This document shows, piece after piece, positions 2,645 to 58,045 of a stretch of 64,000 nucleotides of DNA. Location of the stretch: IMG/VR virus record IMGVR_UViG_3300025872_000049, one strand, 5' to 3'. Origin of the DNA: an uncultured virus (IMG/VR IMGVR_UViG_3300025872_000049) (lineage: Duplodnaviria > Heunggongvirae > Uroviricota > Caudoviricetes). Positions within the stretch are counted from its first letter, which is position 1, and every line of letters starts with the position of its first letter. The position numbers and the translations under genes are program-made. The notes beneath the pieces were generated by a model, which was not told the DNA's origin, searched no databases, and saw only the letters and a program-made list of their open reading frames with translations.

Positions 2645-4005
2645 TGGAAGTTCTCAAGGCAATGCCAGAGTTCATCCAGCGCAACGACCGCGCTCCTCTT
2701 CCATGGAATGTGGAGGAGGGCGCACCTGCCAGAGGTGACGCGTGGACTGAAATGCGTACAGGACGCATGCGCGTTCCGTTCGGTGCTGACGAACTGTCAC
2801 GCACCGTGCGAGCGCACGAACTCATGCACGCGAAAGTCTCGCCTCATCGCATGGAGGAAATGCGCAAACTTCCTCTTCGTCATGACTGCGTACTTGCCGC
2901 TGAAGAGTTCCGTGTGAACATGCTCGTCGCCAATCAAGGCTTTGACATCGACTCGCTTGCTGATGGCTCCGAGTCTCGCGCCGGCAAACTCCTCGGTCAG
3001 AACAACGACTGGAATGGCGTTGTCCGCTTTATGGCAACTACTGCTGGAACTAAGGCTGGCTCTGACTTCATTCGTGGACTCAAGTCATCTAATCCAGACT
3101 TTGCTGAGCAGGCTCGTGCGCTTCAGAAAGTTCTGATGAAGGAATGGCGCAAAGCAATCAAGCGATTCAACGCTCGTGGTGTTGCGTCATCTACGGATGA
3201 AGAGAACGGACTTCCACGAGGATTCAATCGCTTCACCGTTCCTGTTGCGAAACTCCTTGAGAGTGTCATGATTCCAGAGGAGGCTGATGGCGTTCCGAGT
3301 GAGCATGGCAATCAGGAAGTTCCTCGTGTCACGGAAATCGCTAAGGGTGTTGCTGGAAAGTTCGCTCTTCTCATTGAGAAAGAACTTCTCAAGACGCGAA
3401 TCGTCGATGGGAAGATTGGACGCAAGCGCATTGCTAGCAATGTTGGCAAGAACCCGCGTCGTATCAACCGTATGCTGACTGACCCCGAACGACGAATCTT
3501 TGACCGTCGCGCTCGTGGCAAGGGTGGCATTGTCATCATCGACCAATCCGGCTCCATGCACCTTGACGAGAAAGATGTGTGGTCAATCATTGAGCATGCC
3601 CCCGGTGCGACCATCGTCGGATACTCACACCGACAAGGCTCTAAGGACATTCCGAATGTATGGGTCATTGCTGAGCGTGGCAAGGTTGCTGATGTTGTTC
3701 CCACGGGCAACGGTGGCAATGGCGTGGATGGCCCTGCTCTTCGGTTCTCTCTGTCAAAGCGACGGATGAACGAGCCGGTGATTTGGGTCTGCGATGGTCA
3801 TGTCACCGATGGCGATGGAGATGACTTCTACCCGAATCTCGCTGAAGAGTGCGCGCAACTTGTTGTGCGTAACGGAATCCACATGGTTCCCGACGTTGCT
3901 TCAGCGGTATCGGCACTCAAGATTGCTTCCAACGGTCACCGCTTGGAAACTAAGGCAATCGGTTCCATCAAGAATACTGAGGCTTGGCGAGCGTCACGCC
4001 TCTGA
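2641..4005 (+). CDS. vWA-domain protein with N-terminal HExxH motif
   Basis: RAHELMH; MIDAS-like DQSGS ... CDG; coupled to AAA gene. Confidence 0.8.
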   Translation: MMEVLKAMPEFIQRNDRAPLPWNVEEGAPARGDAWTEMRTGRMRVPFGADELSRTVRAHELMHAKVSPHRMEEMRKLPLRHDCVLAAEEFRVNMLVANQGFDIDSLADGSESRAGKLLGQNNDWNGVVRFMATTAGTKAGSDFIRGLKSSNPDFAEQARALQKVLMKEWRKAIKRFNARGVASSTDEENGLPRGFNRFTVPVAKLLESVMIPEEADGVPSEHGNQEVPRVTEIAKGVAGKFALLIEKELLKTRIVDGKIGRKRIASNVGKNPRRINRMLTDPERRIFDRRARGKGGIVIIDQSGSMHLDEKDVWSIIEHAPGATIVGYSHRQGSKDIPNVWVIAERGKVADVVPTGNGGNGVDGPALRFSLSKRRMNEPVIWVCDGHVTDGDGDDFYPNLAEECAQLVVRNGIHMVPDVASAVSALKIASNGHRLETKAIGSIKNTEAWRASRL

Positions 4006-4046: not shown

Positions 4047-4084
4047 AAGGGCAGTGAAGGTTTGTCCCAGCCTTCACTGCCCTT
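4047..4084. terminator. Terminator between convergent genes
   Basis: Perfect 14-bp stem aagggcagtgaagg/ccttcactgccctt plus T-rich tail. Confidence 0.8.
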
Positions 4085-4088
4085 CTTT

Positions 4089-4340
4089 CTATTCGCTCTT
4101 AGAAGCCTTCACCATAAGAAGGTCTACTGCTCTGATGGTGACGTATCCAATGCCGATGGCATACAACTCCCTGACGGAGAAGACACTCACCCCTGCGATG
4201 CTGAGCGCAATCCACAAGAACAAAGCAACCGTTGCTCCCGTGACGATAATGCTCAGCAATCCACCCAGCATGGTCACGAGAATAGGTGTCGATTCCTCCA
4301 CCTTCGGCGGTCTCAGCGTTGGTCGCTGGTATGTGCTCAT
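4089..4340 (-). CDS. Small membrane protein
   Basis: Hydrophobic segments; coupled to upstream gene. Confidence 0.6.
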   Translation of the reverse strand: MSTYQRPTLRPPKVEESTPILVTMLGGLLSIIVTGATVALFLWIALSIAGVSVFSVRELYAIGIGYVTIRAVDLLMVKASKSE

Positions 4341-4723
4341 GCCTGTTGCTTTGCGCTTGTCACAATCTGGTGAACTCGCTGACGAGTGATGCCGAACTCG
4401 GTGGCGATGGCTTGGAGCGTGAGACCACGCCCATTGTCGAATCGCTCAATGATGAGTCGGTCGCGCTCAGGATTGCCCGTGCGTCCAGCGGGCAGAGGGC
4501 CCCACTGCCAGTTAGCCAAGCCTGACAACTCTGTTGCCTGCTCGTTGGTCAGGTGTCCCTTCCGCTGACGATGGCGCACATAGGAAACCCATGCGCCCAA
4601 CTTGATGTCCCCGTACTGGTCGGTCTTCTCCACATGATTGCGAGGCACGCGGGAAGTCCCAGTTCGAGCGACGTACTGACGGAGTGCTGTGATGTGGCTT
4701 TGCCACTTGTTGAGGTTAATCAT
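4337..4723 (-). CDS. Helicase-associated (HA) domain + sigma70-r4-like HTH protein
   Basis: W..HITALRQY..RTG..RVP...LGAWV...R.G.L...WQW; TLQAIATEFGITRQRVHQI. Confidence 0.75.
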   Translation of the reverse strand: MINLNKWQSHITALRQYVARTGTSRVPRNHVEKTDQYGDIKLGAWVSYVRHRQRKGHLTNEQATELSGLANWQWGPLPAGRTGNPERDRLIIERFDNGRGLTLQAIATEFGITRQRVHQIVTSAKQQA

Positions 4724-5023
4724 GAACCGAACACTAGTTCGCCCCGAACGTCCCCAGTGGAAGTATCAGACTAATTTGTCAGCAAAAGCCCCGCAGTAGA
4801 AATGCTGGTGCGGGGCTTCGCCCAGCGGGGGGTGGGGGCGGGGCTATGCGCTCGCTATGTGCGACGGTGGCGGATGAGGACTGGGATGCCTCCCACATCG
4901 CTGAGTTCAGATAAATCTTCCCGAAACTTTCTGCGCTTCGAGCGCACATTTCTGGTGGGTTTGCTCGTTTGGGGTAGTGATGGCGAGTTCCAAGACTGTC
5001 ATCAAACTGTAATGAAACAAAGG

Positions 5024-5181: not shown

Positions 5182-5209
5182 GATGACACCTACAACAAGG
5201 AGGACAGAA

Positions 5210-5518
5210 ATGGAAACCACGACCGAGCGATTCGAGGAAATCGCTGACGAGCAAGACTTGGACTTGGAGGCGTTCCTCGGGTTCTGCGAGAACCAGCACA
5301 TCACCGAGGACGAAGCCGAGGACTATGTGGACGAGTTCCGCGATGCCTATGTCGGCAAGTTTGATTCCGACGAGGAGTTCGCTGAGTACTTCACGGACGA
5401 AGAGGGTCTCCACATTCCCGACATGGTTCGTCCGCACATCGACTGGTCGGACGTGTTCCACTGCGAACTACGCCACGACTTCTACCAAGTGAACGGACAC
5501 TTCTTCCGCAACATCTGA
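5210..5518 (+). CDS. ardA: Antirestriction ArdA-like protein (short; C-terminal domains only)
   Basis: Very acidic; YVGKFDSDEEFAE...IP....HIDW......L..DF....GHFFR matches the ArdA C-terminus. Confidence 0.75.
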   Translation: METTTERFEEIADEQDLDLEAFLGFCENQHITEDEAEDYVDEFRDAYVGKFDSDEEFAEYFTDEEGLHIPDMVRPHIDWSDVFHCELRHDFYQVNGHFFRNI

Positions 5519-5605
5519 GTCGGTGGGGTGGGGGCGACCCCTCCACCCCATAACTCTGTTACACCCCCCTGCTATAATGAAGGCATACCTACTAAGGAGC
5601 AAATC

Positions 5606-6028
5606 ATGACAACGGCACACGAGCAGTACTACACCCAGCCCGAAGCGGGCGCAATCCACATCACCTACGACATCGTTCGTCGTCTTGGGTGGCAGTCTCT
5701 TGACAGCAACTTCGTTCCGACGCTTTGGGAGCAAGCGGTGGAGTCCATCGCCAACGAGAGCGACGGGTGGCGTTGTAAGTTCTGCGACGAGCCTGTGGGC
5801 TGGCACTGGTTTCAGACTGGCGAGTCCGACGCTTGCGGTTGGAACGCTGACTTCTGGAGTCTCAATGAGGACAGCACCGAGGTTGCCTGCGATGAGTGCT
5901 TCATCAAGGTAACGGCGGAGCCGGACTACGGCGACGAGCCGGAAGAAATCTTCACCCTCCAGCCTCACGAGCGAGCAATCATCGACTTCATCGAAACTCT
6001 CGCATTTGACCCAAAGAAATACATCTGA
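5606..6028 (+). CDS. Hypothetical Cys-motif protein
   Basis: CxxC...CxxC; TATAAT at 5573 and SD AAGGAG. Confidence 0.7.
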   Translation: MTTAHEQYYTQPEAGAIHITYDIVRRLGWQSLDSNFVPTLWEQAVESIANESDGWRCKFCDEPVGWHWFQTGESDACGWNADFWSLNEDSTEVACDECFIKVTAEPDYGDEPEEIFTLQPHERAIIDFIETLAFDPKKYI

Positions 6029-6031
6029 AAC

Positions 6032-6060
6032 TTGACAGTCTTACACCCAGCGTGTATAAT
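6032..6060 (+). promoter_or_regulatory. Sigma-A promoter
   Basis: TTGACA-17-TATAAT. Confidence 0.9.
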
Positions 6061-6065
6061 GTTCT

Positions 6066-6185
6066 CGGACAGCAGAAAGCCACACGACTCCTGCCACGAC
6101 AACAGGGGAGTCACACGGCGGTCTGAATAGGTGGGACTCACCCTTGGCGACTTGGCTAAGTCACGGCGAGCCACCGTTCTGTCCG
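6066..6185 (+). ncRNA. Candidate structured RNA (multi-branch), family unknown
   Basis: Begins at predicted TSS; closing stem cggacag/ctgtccg and four internal stems. Confidence 0.6.
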
Positions 6186-6221
6186 GTTGCCACAGATAAA
6201 TCTAAACGAAAGGAAACGACC

Positions 6222-6431
6222 ATGAAGATACCGACCGACATCATGAAAGCAGTCATAGATGAGAGTGGCGTTGCTGTTGTCATCTCCATCGACGGCGACC
6301 CCATCATGACCATCAACTTCTATCGCGAGAAGAATGGCTCGCTTCTGTATGTACTTCAGGAGAATGCCGACGACGAGAGTTCTGCGTTGTGGAATGTCTT
6401 TCCTGAGTACTTCGAGGAGGAAACAGCATGA
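6222..6431 (+). CDS. Hypothetical protein
   Basis: SD GAAAGGA. Confidence 0.7.
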   Translation: MKIPTDIMKAVIDESGVAVVISIDGDPIMTINFYREKNGSLLYVLQENADDESSALWNVFPEYFEEETA

Positions 6432-6628
6432 GTACCTATAACCACGCGTTCACGCTCGGCTTTGCTGTACCTAACAGCGAATACGAGGACTGGCTTGACT
6501 GCCTGCGCAACGAGAAAGACAAAGTAATCAACGCTCTGCTTGTCCGTATTGGTGGACTCACGGGGAATGACGCTGAGTTCGTGGAAGCGTTTGAGGGATT
6601 CGATACCTATGAGGAGGAAACAGCATGA
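6428..6628 (+). CDS. Hypothetical protein
   Basis: ATGA coupling, GAGGAGG SD. Confidence 0.7.
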   Translation: MSTYNHAFTLGFAVPNSEYEDWLDCLRNEKDKVINALLVRIGGLTGNDAEFVEAFEGFDTYEEETA

Positions 6629-6816
6629 GTTCAGTTCTAGACACTGAGTACAAAGTGACTTTCATTGGGGACTACTTCTCCATGACGGTCACCGTCCAAG
6701 GCGTTGAGGGAGATGAGGACACCGCTATTGACCTCGCCTCCAATCTCATCAAGGAGTACTACGGCTGGGATGTCGTTCGGGTTTCGACCGTGGACATCGA
6801 AGTCGAAGAAGCATGA
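6625..6816 (+). CDS. Hypothetical protein
   Basis: ATGA coupling, GAGGAGG SD. Confidence 0.7.
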   Translation: MSSVLDTEYKVTFIGDYFSMTVTVQGVEGDEDTAIDLASNLIKEYYGWDVVRVSTVDIEVEEA

Positions 6817-6817
6817 C

Positions 6818-6846
6818 TTGACTTTGTTACACCTATGGTGTATAAT
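6818..6846 (+). promoter_or_regulatory. Sigma-A promoter
   Basis: TTGACT-17-TATAAT. Confidence 0.9.
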
Positions 6847-6876
6847 GTATACATCACCTACTACGAAAGGACAACT

Positions 6877-7209
6877 ATGACAACCATCGACACCTCTCTG
6901 TTTGACAAGGTGGAGGAGTACATTCACGACGCTCACTTGATTGCGTGGGATGAATGCCACAAGATTTACCTTGCCATGGACGACACCGAGGCTGAGTGGT
7001 TCCGCAACTCCACCTACACGGTCGTTGAGGACACTCCCGAAGTCATGCTCGCCACGGTCATCCGTTGGTTTGAGGAGTCCTGCTTCCTGCGCTTCGTGTC
7101 GGCGGTCAGTCATAACGAAACTGACCCCAACGAGGGTTTCACCAGCATCATCGAACAGTTTGAGGCTGAGGAGGATGAGTACGAAGAGGACGAGGAGGAA
7201 GCAGTATGA
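6877..7209 (+). CDS. Acidic hypothetical protein
   Basis: Start after leader/SD; poly-E tail. Confidence 0.75.
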   Translation: MTTIDTSLFDKVEEYIHDAHLIAWDECHKIYLAMDDTEAEWFRNSTYTVVEDTPEVMLATVIRWFEESCFLRFVSAVSHNETDPNEGFTSIIEQFEAEEDEYEEDEEEAV

Positions 7210-7436
7210 GTGCCACCGAAGAAATGCCCGAGCGCATCAACGTTACCAAGGTTCTGACCTATGACTGCCAGCAGATTGTCTCTGACTTGGTAGCGCAGGG
7301 TATGGAGAACCCAACATTTGAGGATGTTCTTGGAATGATTGAGGAATGGGTCAAGGATGACTTCTCATGCGGATACGGACACGAAGCCAGCCTCCGTGAC
7401 CTTATCTTTACAGACGAGAACGGCGAAGAAATCTGA
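7206..7436 (+). CDS. Hypothetical protein
   Basis: ATGA coupling. Confidence 0.7.
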   Translation: MSATEEMPERINVTKVLTYDCQQIVSDLVAQGMENPTFEDVLGMIEEWVKDDFSCGYGHEASLRDLIFTDENGEEI

Positions 7437-7454
7437 GAAATCTTCTTCTCCGAG

Positions 7455-7483
7455 TTGCGTATCGTTACACAATACGCTATAAT
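7455..7483 (+). promoter_or_regulatory. Sigma-A promoter
   Basis: TTGCGT-17-TATAAT. Confidence 0.8.
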
Positions 7484-7511
7484 GTATCTACCTACTACGA
7501 AAGGAACAGAA

Positions 7512-9241: not shown

Positions 9242-9270
9242 GAAACACCTACTAACGAAAGGGAACTGGT

Positions 9271-10919: not shown

Positions 10920-11390
10920 ATGGTCTCCACTTGGAATGAAGCCTCGCTCTCCGCAGTAAAGACAATCTTTACACTGATTATCCGGTCGAAGGATGCCAGT
11001 GCCTCTCCACTGAGGAGGGGTTTGGATGAATTTATTGCAACGCTCTACGACCGCCCTGCCGGTAAAGAGAAAGCGACTGCTCACTTCAGCAACATCGCCG
11101 CTGATGCTCTGGAGATTGCTCGCCTCCGAGGCATTGACCTAACAGTTGATGAAATCCATCGGACTCTGGTTCGCAAACAGCGAGACTATGGTCCGGAGAA
11201 CATCCGTCGGTTTGGTCGTCAAGGTTTGATGGTCAGGCTTCATGACAAGGTTGCCCGTTTGGAAAACCTTGACGGTGACGGAAGACAGCCGGAGAACGAA
11301 TCCATCAGAGACACTTTCATGGATATCGTTGGCTACTGCGCCATCGGAATGATGTGGGAACGAAACGAGTTCTTGCTCCCGCTCGTATAA
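10920..11390 (+). CDS. DUF1599 / nucleotide-modification-associated domain protein
   Basis: RKQRDYG...GLMVRLHDKVARLENL...ESIRDTFMDIVGY. Confidence 0.75.
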   Translation: MVSTWNEASLSAVKTIFTLIIRSKDASASPLRRGLDEFIATLYDRPAGKEKATAHFSNIAADALEIARLRGIDLTVDEIHRTLVRKQRDYGPENIRRFGRQGLMVRLHDKVARLENLDGDGRQPENESIRDTFMDIVGYCAIGMMWERNEFLLPLV

Positions 11391-11868
11391 AAGCGGGAGC
11401 CGGTGGGTGAATTAGGCGCGCATCGCAAAATCCCCACCGGCTCAACCGCACTGGACCGCAAGGGGGGAACGGTCCAGCAGTGAAACAATACACCATGTAT
11501 TGATGACACATTGTTACAGAACCAAGAAATTTCTCTCAAGTAGCGACGGTGGCGGAAGACAGCCGCTATAGTCAGTCGTAACAAATACAGATGCGCATCG
11601 CGTCATGTTGCTCAACACAGTCAGACCGGCAGGTCTTCTTGAGCGCGCTCCCAAACTAGTGACGGTGGTGTAAGTGGTTCCCCCCGAACCCCCCTCCAAG
11701 CCAGTCGGGATATTGCACTCCTTCCCTAACTCGGGAGGTTGCTAATCCGAAACAAGTTTCGGAATAGCACCGGGATATGCCTTCTTCTTACCCGAGCAAG
11801 ATTCTTTCCGTGGAATGAAGTCAAGCAATGACTTGACTGAGAGCGCGGCTTATGCTAAAAGTTTAGCC

Positions 11869-12285: not shown

Positions 12286-12739
12286 ACTCAAAGCAGTGGT
12301 CGACCGCATCTTCTTGATGTGGAACCAGCAGGTGAATCCCATTACCCAGAAGGAACTGTATAACGGGTGGTGGCGCATTCTATTAGATTTAGAAGAAACA
12401 GATGTTCAGCGCACCATTGACGAGTTGGTCATAGAGAACGGATACATGCCCAGAGCGGGCGAAGTCCGGCGACGCACTATCAATCGTCTCCACGGCGTCA
12501 GTATCCCTAGCCCTATAGAGGCGTGGCAACAGTTCCGTGAGGCGGCGGATGCATCAGCATCTGGAACCTATACGGGTAAATCTATCCACGAAATGGTGGG
12601 GCAAACAGTAAAAGCCCTCGGAGGCACGCAGGCGTACAGCATGCACACCAACGGCGACCGAGAGCAATTCCTGTCTATGTACGAGAGGGTCGTCAAGGAA
12701 TACGAGTCAACCCTCTATGCTCTGCCTCAGAGCCAGTGA
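12272..12739 (+). CDS. Helicase loader/inhibitor (SPP1 G39P-like)
   Basis: MTKSE...W...L.DL....V........YMPRAGEVR. Confidence 0.6.
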   Translation: MTKSELKAVVDRIFLMWNQQVNPITQKELYNGWWRILLDLEETDVQRTIDELVIENGYMPRAGEVRRRTINRLHGVSIPSPIEAWQQFREAADASASGTYTGKSIHEMVGQTVKALGGTQAYSMHTNGDREQFLSMYERVVKEYESTLYALPQSQ

Positions 12740-15090: not shown

Positions 15091-15657
15091 TCAGTTCCTC
15101 ATCCCATACGCGCAAACAAGACCAGACAATGAAACCCCTGTTGGATAAATGGTAATTCCATCGTATGAGGTTGAGAGTTCGTGGGTTCCAGCAGCATCAT
15201 AAATAGATGCATCACTGCTCGTGTCTGCCGAAATTGACCTAAATGCTGTTGGTTGGGACAAAAACGGCCCATACAAATTTACGATGAAACCACCCCAGTT
15301 TGGAGAATCAACTAATCTTGAAGTTTTCCAAAACCCATCTGCCGTAGTCTTATCAGCAGTTATACTGGTGGAACTGGCAATCATTGTCTGTGTGTTGTAA
15401 TCCGTTGCTCCAGTTGCGTCAGTTCCAGAAGTGCGTAAACGGCTATTTATGACGTAGTTGGCCGTAGTTGTATCGTGAGAAACGCGACACACTATCATGT
15501 AGTTGTCGTATGTGCTGGTAAAAATACCGTTGAGCGACAATGCGGTGCAGGTTGCGAATGTAACGGAACCGTTGGTATTGATGGTCGCCGTAGACCCGGT
15601 GCCGGTTTTATCGACGCTGCTGGGTGTGAGAAGGATTAGCCCGTTCTTGTTTGCCAT
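15091..15657 (-). CDS. Fibre/receptor-binding-like beta protein, paralog 2
   Basis: Same conserved motifs. Confidence 0.65.
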   Translation of the reverse strand: MANKNGLILLTPSSVDKTGTGSTATINTNGSVTFATCTALSLNGIFTSTYDNYMIVCRVSHDTTTANYVINSRLRTSGTDATGATDYNTQTMIASSTSITADKTTADGFWKTSRLVDSPNWGGFIVNLYGPFLSQPTAFRSISADTSSDASIYDAAGTHELSTSYDGITIYPTGVSLSGLVCAYGMRN

Positions 15658-18255: not shown

Positions 18256-19494
18256 TTAGATGATGGAGAGGTTGTCCCAGCCATCAGCCGTGACGCAGAA
18301 GGTCAGGGTTCCGGCGCGCGTCTTGACCCCATAGGTGTCTTGGAAATACTCGCCAACAGGGACGATTGACGGGCAGACAAACAGCGCCCGACCCTCCTGC
18401 TCCTTGGCGTTGAAGTGGTGGTAATGCCCAGTTACCAGAATGTCAGCGTCAGCGACGCCCGGATGCGCTCGCCCGTGCGCTTGGTCCTTCCACCAGTTCC
18501 AGACAGCCTGAGCGGCATTGTTGCCTGCCTTCGATAGATGCCCATGGGTGAATGCCAGAATCTTGCCATTCACCTCAAGCGAGGTGGTGAGACGCTCTAG
18601 CGGAAGCCTCCACGAGATGTTAGGGAATGCTTCCTTATTCATCTGGAAAGCCTCAGCAAGTTGCTCAAAGACAGCAACATCGTCGTTGTCGCCAGTTGTG
18701 GTGAACGCCTTGCCACTCAGACCTCGGTTCTCGCCGTGATTACCACCGACGGCAGTAACAGTTAGCCTCTGAGCGAGCGGTGCTAGCGCGAAGATAATGT
18801 CCCTAATACCCCGTCGAACAATCTTCATCTGCTCGCGTCGGTCGACCTCAATGCGGAACTGCTGGGCGGGATAGTGCCCGCAGGTTCCCTCTACGAGGTC
18901 ACCAAGACCAGCAATGACAATATGGTCAATCTTTAGACCAGTCTTGCGGAGGTCTTTGACTCTTTGGGAAATTTTCTCAGGTAGAAGAGCGATTTCTTCA
19001 ACCTGCTTCTCTACTCCGCCACCGTCACGATTTCCGGTCTGCCAGTCCGACAAAGCAACGACAAAAGTGGTGTCCCCAGTGGGCGCCGGTTTTGATGATT
19101 TCTTTGACTTCTTGATGGACTGATATATCTCGTCCATATTTGGGCGTTCTGGCGACTTCAGCCGTATATCAGCCTTGTACGAGTAGCAGATAGCGCTATA
19201 CGCCTCCCCACCCGCATAGTCTTTCTTCCACCCATCAAACGATGTCCAGCGAATACTGTCGCCGACGACCTCATAAAGGTTTGGGTCTAGACCACGCTCA
19301 CGAAGCAGGTCGGACCAATCGGTCGGGGGTTCGTGGATAGCCGAGGTTGTAATCGTTCCTTTGGTTCCATCCCAGACAACTCCTGGTTCCCAGCCGGTCG
19401 GTGACTTGCGAGTCTTGACGGCATCTTTGAGTTCCGCCTCACCCTCAATTGCGGCAAGCCGCTTTGTTAGTTCGCTCACTTCGCCTCCTTGCAT
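18256..19494 (-). CDS. Calcineurin-like metallophosphoesterase
   Basis: SDWQ, GDLVEG, GNHGE, THGH, GHYHH. Confidence 0.85.
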   Translation of the reverse strand: MQGGEVSELTKRLAAIEGEAELKDAVKTRKSPTGWEPGVVWDGTKGTITTSAIHEPPTDWSDLLRERGLDPNLYEVVGDSIRWTSFDGWKKDYAGGEAYSAICYSYKADIRLKSPERPNMDEIYQSIKKSKKSSKPAPTGDTTFVVALSDWQTGNRDGGGVEKQVEEIALLPEKISQRVKDLRKTGLKIDHIVIAGLGDLVEGTCGHYPAQQFRIEVDRREQMKIVRRGIRDIIFALAPLAQRLTVTAVGGNHGENRGLSGKAFTTTGDNDDVAVFEQLAEAFQMNKEAFPNISWRLPLERLTTSLEVNGKILAFTHGHLSKAGNNAAQAVWNWWKDQAHGRAHPGVADADILVTGHYHHFNAKEQEGRALFVCPSIVPVGEYFQDTYGVKTRAGTLTFCVTADGWDNLSII

Positions 19495-23624: not shown

Positions 23625-24970
23625 TACTTTCTCCTTGTTGCCGGTTGGGCTGAAAGAATGAGGCAAAAGCCAAGCGCCATAAGACCAATAGCAAGGAGGA
23701 CCTGAGTTTCTGTTCCATTACCAGTCTTAGGAAGGTCTGGCGTTAGCACGGGGATAGATGATGTGGTTGGGGATTCCGGAAGCGCTGTAGTCGTAGTTTC
23801 AGGAGCGGTCGTCGTAGTTTCGACTGGGACCGTAGTTTCACGATTGTCGTCATCATCCTCTGCCACAGTTGTTGTAGGTGCCTCGGTTGGTGCAGGCTCG
23901 GTAGCAGGGGGGTCGGTCTCAACTGGGTCCGTTGAAGGAGGGTCAGTTGGGTCCGTTGAAGGAGGGTCAGTCGCTTCGGGGTCTGTTGAAGGAGGGTCTG
24001 TAGCCACAGGGTCCGTAGCGGGCGGGTCAGTCACCGGAGGTTCAGTCGTGGCTGGCGGAACTGTTGGCGCATCCGAGTTATTTGGCGCTACGGCTCCGAA
24101 ATCTTCCCCATTCTTAGTCGTTGAGCCGGGCTGGCTATCAACTAGGAGGACGGGCGAGAGTGCTGTGTCATCAAGATTAAAGACCGCAAAGCCAAGGAGA
24201 TAATCGCCAGTTACCGAGACGGTGTAGGTCGACATTTGCCAACCAGTAGAACCAAATGTGCCAGTGGAATAGTCGCCAGTTCCGGGGTTTGTGAAGCCAA
24301 GAAGCGCATACTGATTGCCACTATTATTTACCGAAACAGTAGGTGACCCTGAAGTTGGCGTCAGTGAAGTGATTGAGCCATCGTTGAAGGGGACATAATC
24401 GGTGCCGATGTAGTTCCAAGACATAGTGTAGGTCGTTCCCGCCTGAAGCGTGACCGTCTTTGTAATCCATGAGGCATCAGTTGGCGAGCCACTTCCATAA
24501 CCAGAAGCGGAAGCCTGATTTGACAATTCCGAGCGCATATCTGTTTCATCAGAACTACTGACCCCAAGTGCCGTCAGAGCATCGTCAAATGTCTGGGAAC
24601 TATTGGGCTGGAGTGCGACTGCATACGAGCCATACGGACTAAATGACCATGACGTAGGGTCAACCGCTGGCTGGTAGTAGGGGTTAGGCGAGCCATCACC
24701 GAGCGTCGGGTTACCAACTGCTCCGTGACTTCCCGCATTAAATGTCACTGACCCACTGATAAGGGTCACGCCAGACCCATTACCAGTAATTAAGCCACCA
24801 GCCAGTGACCCACTCTGCGACCCAATATTCCAGTCAGATAGATTTCCAGACTCAAACCCAGTATCTGCCACAACCTCAGCAGATGCCGAGCCGAGACTCC
24901 ACGGCATGATTAGCGAAATTCCAGAGATAGCAAGAAAACCACCAAGAATATTGAGTGTTCGAGTTTTCAT
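23624..24970 (-). CDS. Secreted LPxTG sortase-anchored surface protein
   Basis: Signal peptide, beta-rich domain, TDPP repeats, LPKTG + TM + RRK tail. Confidence 0.8.
   Translation of the reverse strand: MKTRTLNILGGFLAISGISLIMPWSLGSASAEVVADTGFESGNLSDWNIGSQSGSLAGGLITGNGSGVTLISGSVTFNAGSHGAVGNPTLGDGSPNPYYQPAVDPTSWSFSPYGSYAVALQPNSSQTFDDALTALGVSSSDETDMRSELSNQASASGYGSGSPTDASWITKTVTLQAGTTYTMSWNYIGTDYVPFNDGSITSLTPTSGSPTVSVNNSGNQYALLGFTNPGTGDYSTGTFGSTGWQMSTYTVSVTGDYLLGFAVFNLDDTALSPVLLVDSQPGSTTKNGEDFGAVAPNNSDAPTVPPATTEPPVTDPPATDPVATDPPSTDPEATDPPSTDPTDPPSTDPVETDPPATEPAPTEAPTTTVAEDDDDNRETTVPVETTTTAPETTTTALPESPTTSSIPVLTPDLPKTGNGTETQVLLAIGLMALGFCLILSAQPATRRK
23880..24060 (-). repeat. TDPP(S/A)T coding repeats
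   Basis: Repeated gttgaaggagggtc units. Confidence 0.8.
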
Positions 24971-56285: not shown

Positions 56286-57359
56286 ATGGGAAGAGTCTTG
56301 AAAATTGGTATTGCGTCGACCGATTGGTCGCGCTCTATGGTTGACAATGCTGGTCATCCGGTTCCTGGAGGCGCAAATTGGGTACGCCTTCAACAAAACC
56401 GTCGTCATATGAAGTATGTGACCGTCTCTGGTCTGCTTGTTCATAGTCCGACCAAGGGTTTTGGAATTCTGGATTGGAACAAAAAAGCGCACTATGACTG
56501 TAAAGTCATTATTTTACAGCGACTGATGTTCAAGAATCTTGTTGAGAAACTTGACGATAGGCATAAATATGGTCAGGTCATCATCAATGATATTGACGAC
56601 TGGTACTGGGGTCTTCACGAAGACAACCACGCATACAAGTTGACACACCCTGACTTCAATAAAGACGAGAATATTGACCACTACAAAAAAATTATTGAAG
56701 CATCTGACGGCGTAACGGTTAGTACGCCATTCCTCAAGAACAAATTTGAACAGGAATTTGACTGTCAGCGCGTTGATATTATTGAGAACTGCGTAACAAT
56801 GATTGACTTTCGAGTCCGGTATCACCGTTCACGCAGGGCAAAGGTTGGCTGGGTGGGGTCTACTTCGCACCGCTCTGGCGACTTAGAACTTCTTGATGGG
56901 GTGCTCGGTGCTGGACCGTGGAGGCTTCATCACTCTGGGCATGTTAATGGGGCGGTTCATTTTGCCGACAAAGTTGGGGTGCGGCGAGAGGGTGTCACTC
57001 TCAGTCCAATGTTCCACCCTAAGGACTATGCCCGACTTTCATTTGAATTTGATATTGGCGTAGCGCCACTCAATGATATCCCCTTTAACCACGCTAAGTC
57101 ATGGATTAAGGCTATTGAATATGCGTCTGCGGGGATTCCGGTAGTGATGTCTGACGTTGGTGAATATCGACGACTTCATGACCAGTATGGAATCGGGAGG
57201 CTCGCATCTACCAAGGATGAGTGGATTGACCATCTTATGGAACTTAAGGATTACACAGCGCGAACACCTGAGGCGGCGCGAATCCGGAAGCAGGTCAAAG
57301 AACTGGATGTGTCAGTAATGGCTAAAAGATGGGATGAGGTTATTTCATCCTATCTATAG
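56286..57359 (+). CDS. GT-B (GT4-like) glycosyltransferase
   Basis: DIDD, VGWVGS..H, DIGVAPL...FN.AKS.IK.IEY..AGIPVV.S. Confidence 0.85.
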   Translation: MGRVLKIGIASTDWSRSMVDNAGHPVPGGANWVRLQQNRRHMKYVTVSGLLVHSPTKGFGILDWNKKAHYDCKVIILQRLMFKNLVEKLDDRHKYGQVIINDIDDWYWGLHEDNHAYKLTHPDFNKDENIDHYKKIIEASDGVTVSTPFLKNKFEQEFDCQRVDIIENCVTMIDFRVRYHRSRRAKVGWVGSTSHRSGDLELLDGVLGAGPWRLHHSGHVNGAVHFADKVGVRREGVTLSPMFHPKDYARLSFEFDIGVAPLNDIPFNHAKSWIKAIEYASAGIPVVMSDVGEYRRLHDQYGIGRLASTKDEWIDHLMELKDYTARTPEAARIRKQVKELDVSVMAKRWDEVISSYL

Positions 57360-57415
57360 CCTTCTCTTAGGAGAACACTTCTGATAGTAAACTATCGGTG
57401 AGGAAAGGCGCATTT

Positions 57416-58045
57416 ATGCTCGTCAATATCACCGAAATTGAGCGCTACATGGATGTCAAGTTATCCCCGCGCCAGAATCATGCTGCTGGATATATCCTTG
57501 AGGGTCTCCAGAGCGAACTTGAGTCCTACCTGCGTAGACCAGTTGAAGTAGGTACTTTCACTGAGAACTATAGGGTTGAATCGTCCAATGTTGGACTTCC
57601 CACATCATCATTCTTTTATGACACCTCTCTTGGAACGGACCAGCGAGTCCAGACGTATCTTCAGCCCCCCTACACGGTGTATGTCCGCAACTCGCCCGTT
57701 GTCTCGGTCGCATCAGTAACTGTGACTGCGCCGACGCCCGGAAGCGTTCCCGAAGTATTGGTCGATGGCACTGATTACATTGTGCGGAGATACGGCATAG
57801 ATGTCTACAGAACTTTTGCTAATGACAATATTGAGGTCGTCTATGATGCCGGTCTTGATGGTGAACAAATTAAGCACTTTAAGTTGATGATTCTGCGAGC
57901 GGCATCAAGGGAAATGCAGAATATGCACGACGATGTCGTTGGAATTAAGGACTTGGAGACAAGGAATACCGCACCGCTCACAACCGGATTTACACCTGAG
58001 GAACTTGCCTCGGTTCGTCGTTGGCGTAGGGTTCGGGTGGCGTGA
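57416..58045 (+). CDS. Head-tail connector/adaptor
   Basis: LV...E...Y...ESYLRR; V.Y.AG; position. Confidence 0.7.
   Translation: MLVNITEIERYMDVKLSPRQNHAAGYILEGLQSELESYLRRPVEVGTFTENYRVESSNVGLPTSSFFYDTSLGTDQRVQTYLQPPYTVYVRNSPVVSVASVTVTAPTPGSVPEVLVDGTDYIVRRYGIDVYRTFANDNIEVVYDAGLDGEQIKHFKLMILRAASREMQNMHDDVVGIKDLETRNTAPLTTGFTPEELASVRRWRRVRVA

Follow-up and report, generated by a model that had tools for sequence, protein, structure and literature searches.

The DNA analysed here, 64,000 nucleotides from an uncultured virus of the Caudoviricetes (IMG/VR record IMGVR_UViG_3300025872_000049; hereafter the window), raises the question of why a single early promoter is followed by a leader far longer than those of its neighbours, and whether 120 nt of that leader, at positions 6066–6185, constitute a novel structured RNA transcribed from its own promoter, as an initial annotation had proposed. 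We compared this leader with the others of the phage and of its relatives, and evaluated its fold, its variation between strains and its likeness to known systems.

A long leader in a compact early region

The window represents most of the genome of a freshwater myovirus, with PHROG matches for the tail sheath, portal, head protease and large terminase, the last sharing no more than about 43% identity with any GenBank phage sequence; ten sequencing runs, all of freshwater metagenomes, contain the stretch. Its first 10 kb form a compact early region of small plus-strand genes served by a family of sigma-70-type promoters, with new promoters every 1–3 kb. Our own scan of the window, in which at most one mismatch to the consensus was allowed, identified six near-consensus promoters, all on the plus strand and all within these first 10 kb; promoter-like sites numbered 12 against 7.4 expected, and four of them matched at 12 of 12 positions. 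The promoter in question, TTGACA-N17-TATAAT at 6032–6060 (+), is such a 12/12 match. The leaders behind the six promoters measure, in order, 28, 43, 28, 161, 30 and 29 nt, and a seventh promoter at 1434 likewise has a short one. Because the other five leaders span only 28–43 nt, the 161-nt leader, which ends at the ATG at 6222 and is found only behind the 6032–6060 promoter among the early promoters of the window, is an outlier in a very compact region, and the anomaly that first drew attention to this site is borne out.

The short leaders follow a common design. A canonical 5' untranslated region (UTR), ACACCTACTA(N)GAAAGG-N3-10-ATG, begins approximately at the transcript start and occurs in the window at 458–486, 1463–1490, 1879–1923, 6847–6876 and 9242–9270, and in a distant relative, L004, at 3413–3440 and 3959–3985. 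A scan for this leader gave 34 loci, nine of which (L102, L103, L117, L120, L122 and L124–L127) have tblastx matches to the early region of the window; five records, G004–G008, hold seven of these nine, with L102 and L120 left out. The ACACCTACTA(N)GAAAGG motif is conserved across the window, L004 and these five further relatives behind three types of promoter: the sigma-70 consensus in the window, L004 and G005, TTGAGATAGGTTGCACG in G008, and GGAAACTCCAGCC..TATAG in G006. This clade-wide leader may be a translation or recognition signal. Since the short leader is conserved across the clade, the extra 120 nt at 6066–6185 are best regarded as an addition to a conserved design: the 161-nt leader retains just the 3' part of the canonical motif (..ATCTAAACGAAAGGAAACGACC-ATG), which is preceded by about 120 extra nucleotides. 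That retained part lies in a linker at 6186–6221 (+), unstructured and unpaired in the centroid fold, which carries the usual ribosome-binding leader of the phage and includes, 3' of the element, an AU-rich single-stranded stretch at 6194–6206. By the phage's own gene-start rules, 6066–6185 is non-coding.

Upstream of the promoter, an open reading frame at 5603–6028 (+) encodes a 141-amino-acid, Cys-rich (CxxC...CxxC) protein, for which no Pfam or PHROG match was obtained and no DNA-binding domain was recognised; its AlphaFold model (pLDDT 73.9) matched no PDB fold at E<=0.001. Four homologues (P0001–P0004; 84, 70, 47 and 50% identity) were aligned with it as the A1 family, in which four Cys residues are invariant. 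The first gene of the predicted transcript, at 6222–6431 (+), encodes a 69-amino-acid protein with two homologues (P0005 and P0006, both called at 69 amino acids) and likewise no Pfam or PHROG match.

Several features of the surroundings deserve mention in their own right. Two genes upstream of the element, 5207–5518 encodes a 103-amino-acid acidic early protein with a marginal match to ArdA (26.8 bits against a cut-off of 27, E 9e-6), a homologue of which begins at 4899 in L004; the ArdA match suggests that the neighbourhood is an anti-defence or host-takeover region. The sole minus-strand gene of the early region, 4337–4723 (-), lies just behind a strong plus-strand terminator at 4047–4084 and carries helicase-associated (HA) and sigma-70 region 4/HTH domains (Pfam E 1e-13 and 2e-8), so that its product is a possible transcription regulator. 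Downstream, a 20-nt direct repeat, GAGGAGGAAACAGCATGAGT, at 6413–6433 and 6611–6630 flanks a gene for 66 amino acids at 6428–6628. In two strain contigs, X5 and X7, position 6433 is joined straight to sequence like that from 6631 onward, and these strains therefore lack the gene, which behaves as a strain-variable cassette whose bounding repeats include the Shine-Dalgarno (SD) sequence and start codon.

Fold and strain variation of the element

The 120-nt element (6066–6185, +), present as a single copy within the window, comprises a closing stem and two arms, and all of the parts named in the initial annotation are present. The closing stem, P1, joins cggacag at 6066–6072 to ctgtccg at 6179–6185 (both +) through seven perfect pairs, and its 5' strand begins 6 nt past the -10 hexamer, approximately at the predicted transcript start. 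The hairpin sequences at 6086–6112, 6130–6142 (GGTG-GGACT-CACC) and 6149–6162 (GACTT-GGCT-AAGTC) were confirmed. The stem of 6115–6122 with 6170–6177 exists but is imperfect, with seven of eight pairs, one of them U.G, and a C6119.A6173 mismatch. The complementarity proposed to form a pseudoknot, between AGCC at 6078–6081 and GGCT at 6154–6157, is also there, but a 4-nt pseudoknot is at chance level and without support.

The minimum free energy (MFE) structure of 6066–6185 is a closed Y of -49.6 kcal/mol (z -3.16), an energy matched or bettered by 3 of 200 shuffles. It retains the closing stem and the 6086–6112 hairpin and departs from the original scheme in the second half, where one long arm supplants the ACGGCGGU/GCCACCGU stem and its two small hairpins; that scheme, taken exactly, reaches -37.2 kcal/mol, 12.4 above the MFE, and is not the best fold. 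Arm I (6073–6125, +) consists of CAGA/UCUG and GCC/GGC helices and the hairpin GACUCCU (6086–6092)/GGGAGUC (6106–6112) with a 13-nt loop. Arm II (6130–6175, +) consists of GGUGG/CCACC and CUCACC/GGCGAG helices interrupted by an A6140.C6167 mismatch, and its apical part, which contains the tandem CTTGGCGA/CTTGGCTA, is weak.

The evidence that this folding exceeds chance is modest. When the flanks are included (6060–6240), the z-score is just -0.60. A perfect end stem of at least 7 bp arose in 109 of 2000 shuffles when its 5' strand had to start in the first 12 nt and in 415 of 5000 when it could start in the first 20 nt, that is, in 5–8% overall. When every 120-nt window of the 64 kb, from either strand, was folded as background and corrected for GC by regression, the element came out at -1.8 sd (rank 415 of 12,778), a comparison slightly unfair to the background since the borders of the element were chosen. 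The opposite strand folds more stably, at -53.6 kcal/mol (z -3.68), since both the A.C mismatch and the symmetric ACAC/ACAC loops turn into G.U pairs there. The folding of 6066–6185 is thus neither exceptional for this genome nor strand-specific.

The strongest-folding stretch of the window is 11350–11520 (both strands; minus strand -71.5 kcal/mol, z -5.4), where two long GC-rich hairpins, one of them with a U-run behind it, come shortly after a plus-strand reading frame that stops at 11390; it is probably a pair of terminators and possibly a bidirectional one. Four further windows, 57281–57430 (+), 24671–24810 (-), 12601–12720 (-) and 18821–18960 (-), have a GC-adjusted folding 3.8–4.4 sd below the mean, and all are more extreme than 6066–6185.

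Near-identical strains represented by contigs from three other runs (X5, X7 and X9) cover the element. Neither the 5' strand of P1 (6066–6072) nor the stem of the 6086–6112 hairpin is changed in these contigs, and three changes in X5 alone, a deletion at 6097, 6098 G>A and 6103 C>T, all fall in the loop of that hairpin. Changes at 6144, 6152 and 6167 are shared by all three contigs. Five of the six changes in the element occur at bases unpaired in the MFE structure, as against 46 unpaired positions of 120 (binomial P 0.034, or 0.075 when the adjacent 6097 and 6098 are counted once). One shared change, C6167T, turns the A6140.C6167 mismatch into an A-U pair and therefore favours the MFE arm over the original scheme, although it is one-sided, and another, T6144A, disrupts an MFE pair. 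The general fold survives in rebuilt variant haplotypes (-49.4 and -49.5 kcal/mol), and these near-identical contigs contain no double compensatory change. The strain pattern is compatible with selection on the stems and far from proof of it.

The 3' half of the element appears weakly constrained, since 6144–6221 is more variable than the flanking genes, with seven changed sites in 78 nt compared with three in about 210 nt of the next gene; the linker at 6186–6221 is the most variable part between strains (6189, 6190, 6194 and 6201). In the same three contigs, T6144A and T6152A convert both tandem copies of an 8-nt repeat from CTTGGC to CATGGC, a concerted change that neither the RNA folds nor a coding reading accounts for.

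Searches for relatives and the leader of L004

Comparisons with known RNA classes gave no match, as had been anticipated. Searches of the whole window against Rfam 15 at gathering thresholds returned no matches, and at E<=10 the stretch 5950–6300 gave only four at chance level, of which the sole one overlapping the element is mir-432 on the minus strand, at 13.2 bits (E 8.5) where the threshold is 70. ARAGORN found no tRNA or tmRNA gene in the 64 kb. Nothing resembling a terminator separates 6185 from the start codon at 6222, no hairpin with a U-run was found behind the element, and the centroid fold of 6060–6240 leaves the SD stretch unpaired. Downstream of the element there is accordingly no riboswitch or attenuator expression platform in the form of a terminator or an SD-sequestering helix.

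Searches for related DNA and proteins were nearly as barren. In GenBank phages, a DNA search with 5500–7500 had no match, one with 6030–6225 had a single chance match, and tblastn with the upstream protein had none; nor was any match obtained in IMG/VR with the upstream protein, the downstream protein or alignment A1, or in species-representative genomes with alignment A1. The nearest record, G001, is the same phage (99.97%) and covers window 25876–64000 and 11.8 kb beyond. A 454-amino-acid early protein led to L001 and L002 (48 and 47% identical), both of which are too distant and have no similar element. A pattern search of IMG/VR for a consensus promoter, 115–145 nt and CGAAAGG yielded 87 stretches, some resembling tRNA genes behind promoters; by inspection, none is related to this phage group. 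In all five of the records G004–G008, the upstream Cys-rich gene family is absent; their recognised promoter-anchored leaders measure 20–41 nt, barring probable false sites and leaderless starts, and no long structured leader was recognised among them.

Only two loci, L003 and L004, were recovered from metagenomes with the upstream gene family. L003 is 100% identical to the window over 6423 bases and is therefore uninformative. L004 encodes a Cys-rich homologue with 38% identity, 3' of which lie tandem promoters, the second a 12/12 match at 2249–2278. The leader that follows is 130 nt long and contains a 99-nt element (2287–2385) closed by a stem of 5+12 bp (about 17 bp) with a 1x2 internal loop, whose 9-bp perfect core was reached in 13 of 5000 shuffles. 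The other promoters of L004 have leaders of 25–30 nt, rising to 83 nt where another promoter intervenes. The canonical CAACTACTACGAAAGGACA..ATG comes after the L004 element, which divides the canonical leader as GAACACCA / element / CAACTACTACGAAAGGA (also written CAACTACTACG); since it sits inside the canonical leader, its closing stem would rejoin the two halves.

The genes flanking the element differ between the window and L004, the gene order is shuffled, and the 69-amino-acid protein has no homology with the gene behind the L004 element; just the Cys-rich gene, the promoter and the long leader stay linked. The two elements themselves are not demonstrably homologous in sequence. Their best local alignment scores 14, below the 14.5 that shuffles average, and 337 of 500 shuffles do as well; a covariance model, R1, built from the window element and its MFE structure found only itself in 348,879 bases of relatives and missed the L004 element even with filters off. 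There is therefore no aptamer conserved among relatives, the sole analogue being unalignable and missed by the covariance model. The L004 element also folds as well on its opposite strand; because the opposite strands of both elements fold as well or better, the folding signal reflects generic inverted-repeat symmetry and not strand-specific RNA pairing. By analogy, the L004 arrangement nevertheless argues that the leader in the window is not a random spacer. The pattern also fits a link between the Cys-rich gene and a long leader, which on two positive cases is not established.

G006 and L004 also carry a promoter-like module, GGAAACTC(C/T)..GCC, placed 8–10 nt upstream of TATAG/TAGAAT. G006 (L140–L141) has more than 30 sites (for example, at 15316, 18004 and 21104), some with an ATG within a few bases, which suggests leaderless starts. 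In L004, the module occurs at about 1545–1575, 1770–1800 and 4835–4865, right behind consensus sigma-70 promoters as tandem promoters. The GGAAACTC module is likely to be a phage-specific promoter class, middle or late. In the window, no enrichment of GGAAACTC..TAGAAT was detected.

Competing explanations and comparison with known systems

Because no terminator follows it, the element would be the 5' part of an mRNA. The reading that we tentatively prefer is that it is the 5'-terminal part of an early mRNA, a lineage-specific structured insertion that would act in cis, if at all, in 5'-end protection or processing. On this view, about 120 nt of inverted-repeat-rich sequence would have been inserted behind a strong sigma-70-type promoter and ahead of the short ribosome-binding leader that is standard in this phage; the paired ends would extrude the insertion as a closed Y-shaped domain, placing the 5' end of the transcript in a helix and leaving the Shine-Dalgarno region free. 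On this one transcript it might shield the 5' end from 5'-end-dependent decay or, alternatively, provide a double-strand processing site like the RNase III sites of T7-type early mRNAs. Set beside the roughly two turns of double-stranded RNA that serve as the criterion for RNase III, the window element offers 7+4 contiguous pairs on its 5' strand and the L004 element 5+12 bp. We infer from prediction all three of the underlying steps, namely transcription, this fold in the cell and any effect on stability or processing. Why just this transcript should need 5' protection is unexplained, which is a point against the cis-acting leader. The initial annotation had suggested a decoy, a ribozyme or a regulatory leader; the regulatory leader survives, and nothing speaks for a ribozyme or a decoy.

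The main rival, which we consider possible if somewhat doubtful, is that the insertion is functionless in itself, whether neutral or selfish. It could be a MITE-like palindrome or a decayed tandem-promoter leader module, and it would be tolerated because its ends pair and the ribosome-binding leader stays intact. Such an origin would fit the size of 99–120 bp and the terminal inverted repeats (7 bp for the window element, about 17 bp for that of L004), the lack of common sequence or structure between the two elements, folding that is ordinary against the genome background and equal or better on the opposite strand, and a 3' half that diverges strongly between strains. Inside the L004 element, moreover, the sequence weakly resembles the second-promoter module of that locus, GGAAACTCTGCCACACCCC..TAGAAT, a likeness equalled by 12 of 1000 shuffles before correction for 12 comparisons. 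For the window element, 64–73 of 1000 shuffles do as well, and a decayed copy of the GGAAACTC..TAGAAT promoter module is weakly supported by the sequence. A mobile insertion would, however, be expected to recur, and this one is a single copy in the window, with no second copy found by blastn-short in the window or the loci; exact-pattern scans gave no further copies of the core hairpin in IMG/VR or in species-representative genomes and no matches to the L004 repeat in IMG/VR. No convincing target-site duplication flanks either element, the promoter-module motif is not enriched in the window, and chance would have to have placed two independent insertions at one syntenic position.

A stand-alone non-coding RNA, cut from the 5' end of the transcript and acting in trans, for example as a decoy against host defence, we judge unlikely. 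The consensus promoter directly upstream, the closed architecture, which would survive processing, the adjoining AU-rich single-stranded linker at 6194–6206, the marginal ArdA-like antirestriction protein two genes upstream and the lack of any known family match would all suit it. Yet it has no terminator or defined 3' end, the loops that a decoy or kissing interaction would need vary between close strains, no homologue was found in the 348,879 bases of relatives, no covariation is seen (the strain contigs being near-identical) and the 4-bp AGCC/GGCU pseudoknot is at chance level. A terminator-ended trans-acting small RNA in particular was rejected, since the promoter is present but no intrinsic terminator lies 3' of the element. 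The proposal of a discrete, conserved structured RNA gene is unsupported for the same reason and because the sole analogue shares neither sequence nor modelled structure, and 6066–6185 is not shown to be a new RNA family.

A role at the level of DNA appears to us quite improbable: nested inverted repeats bound by a phage regulator, possibly the Cys-rich protein, would modulate or shut off the promoter. In its favour, the gene, promoter and inverted-repeat leader travel together while all neighbours differ, the element has diverged fully alongside a 38%-identical protein, as a cognate pair would, and the symmetry is strand-independent. The repeat arms are, however, 65–106 bp apart, unlike usual operators, the Cys-rich protein has no recognisable DNA-binding domain or fold match, and the linkage rests on two examples. 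More speculative still, and in our estimate very improbable, is a mobile three-part cassette of Cys-rich gene, promoter and leader in which a fast-evolving RNA and a zinc-ribbon-like protein are cognate; either the protein would act on the leader, or it would join the processed 5' domain in an early anti-defence or host-takeover ribonucleoprotein. This idea is raised because it would explain both the linkage amid differing neighbours and the divergence of the RNA together with the protein.

We regard as very improbable a coding explanation in which the downstream gene starts at a TTG at 6144 to give a 95-amino-acid protein and a 25-codon upstream reading frame of L004 is translated: from 6144 the frame runs uninterrupted and in phase into ATG 6222, an AGGTGG precedes 6144 by 9 nt, T6144A turns the TTG into ATG in three strain contigs, the changes at 6152, 6167 and 6194 are synonymous third-position changes in that frame, and the TGA of the L004 frame overlaps the next ATG (ATGA), but ATG 6222 has the phage's canonical leader and SD, P0005 and P0006 are called at 69 amino acids (one from a 2255-nt contig, equal in length to the X7 contig with the ATG variant), three of the six non-start changes (6189, 6190 and 6201) are non-synonymous, third-position changes in three of six cases are within chance expectation, a 1-nt deletion at 6170, a possible frameshift, is seen in X9 at a depth of 2, and the L004 frame has no SD.

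If the element is functional, a freshwater myovirus would be customising a single early transcript by adding a structured 5' domain to a conserved short leader, with a hint of a linked protein–RNA cassette. As the evidence stands, the locus is mainly a caution that a clean multi-stem fold behind a perfect promoter can be statistically ordinary, and the clade-conserved short 5' UTR may be a more general feature than 6066–6185.

Among known systems, the cis-acting antitermination RNAs of HK022 (put) and lambda (nut) also occupy the leader directly downstream of an early promoter. The element bears no sequence or two-hairpin resemblance to them and, unlike them, has no strong plus-strand terminator downstream, the sole site being one of five pairs at 6325–6342 inside the next gene. 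The pRNA of phi29 measures about 120 nt and is made from a strong early promoter; its ends pair, it has a three-way junction, and two of its loops share a 4-nt complementarity. Our element resembles it in its length of about 120 nt, its place behind a strong early promoter, its paired ends, the three-way junction of its predicted fold and a 4-nt complementarity. The complementary 4-mers are not, however, both in loops in the best fold, and a phi29-type pRNA was rejected given the lack of an Rfam match and a myovirus with a tail sheath, portal and conventional large terminase.

One regulator of the Aca type, Aca2, binds RNA. Aca-type regulators are reported to bind inverted-repeat operators in the promoters and 5' UTRs of phage anti-defence operons (PMC13551039), and in the window, too, inverted repeats come after a strong early promoter in an anti-defence-like region. 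The resemblance ends there, as no HTH regulator was found in the operon and the repeats are far apart and nested.

Small palindromic insertions such as the Correia/NEMIS elements of Neisseria and the enterobacterial ERIC sequences form multi-copy families with a recognisable consensus. The element is like them in its size class of 100–150 bp, its terminal inverted repeats, its transcribed intergenic location (here predicted) and its folding into a closed hairpin. In contrast to these families, it has one copy per phage, and exact-pattern scans gave no further copy.

Stabilisers of mRNA formed by a 5'-terminal stem-loop, as in the ompA 5' UTR and the early RNA of the Bacillus phage SP82, are simple hairpins. 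The predicted transcript start at the first bases of a helix, with little or no single-stranded 5' tail, is a feature that the element would share with them, whereas 120 nt and two arms far exceed what that role needs.

In the early mRNAs of T7 and T3, RNase III processing hairpins occur, for example, between the A promoters and gene 0.3; the T7 sites are single irregular hairpins of about 50–60 nt that recur between many genes. The element of the window differs from these in occurring once and in being branched, its 120 nt forming a domain whose base has only 11 stacked pairs. Nevertheless, like the T7 and T3 sites, it is a non-coding structure that lies just behind a strong sigma-70-type early promoter and ahead of the first small early gene, with no terminator and with the downstream ribosome-binding site left free; its counterpart in L004 has an irregular helix of about 17 bp.
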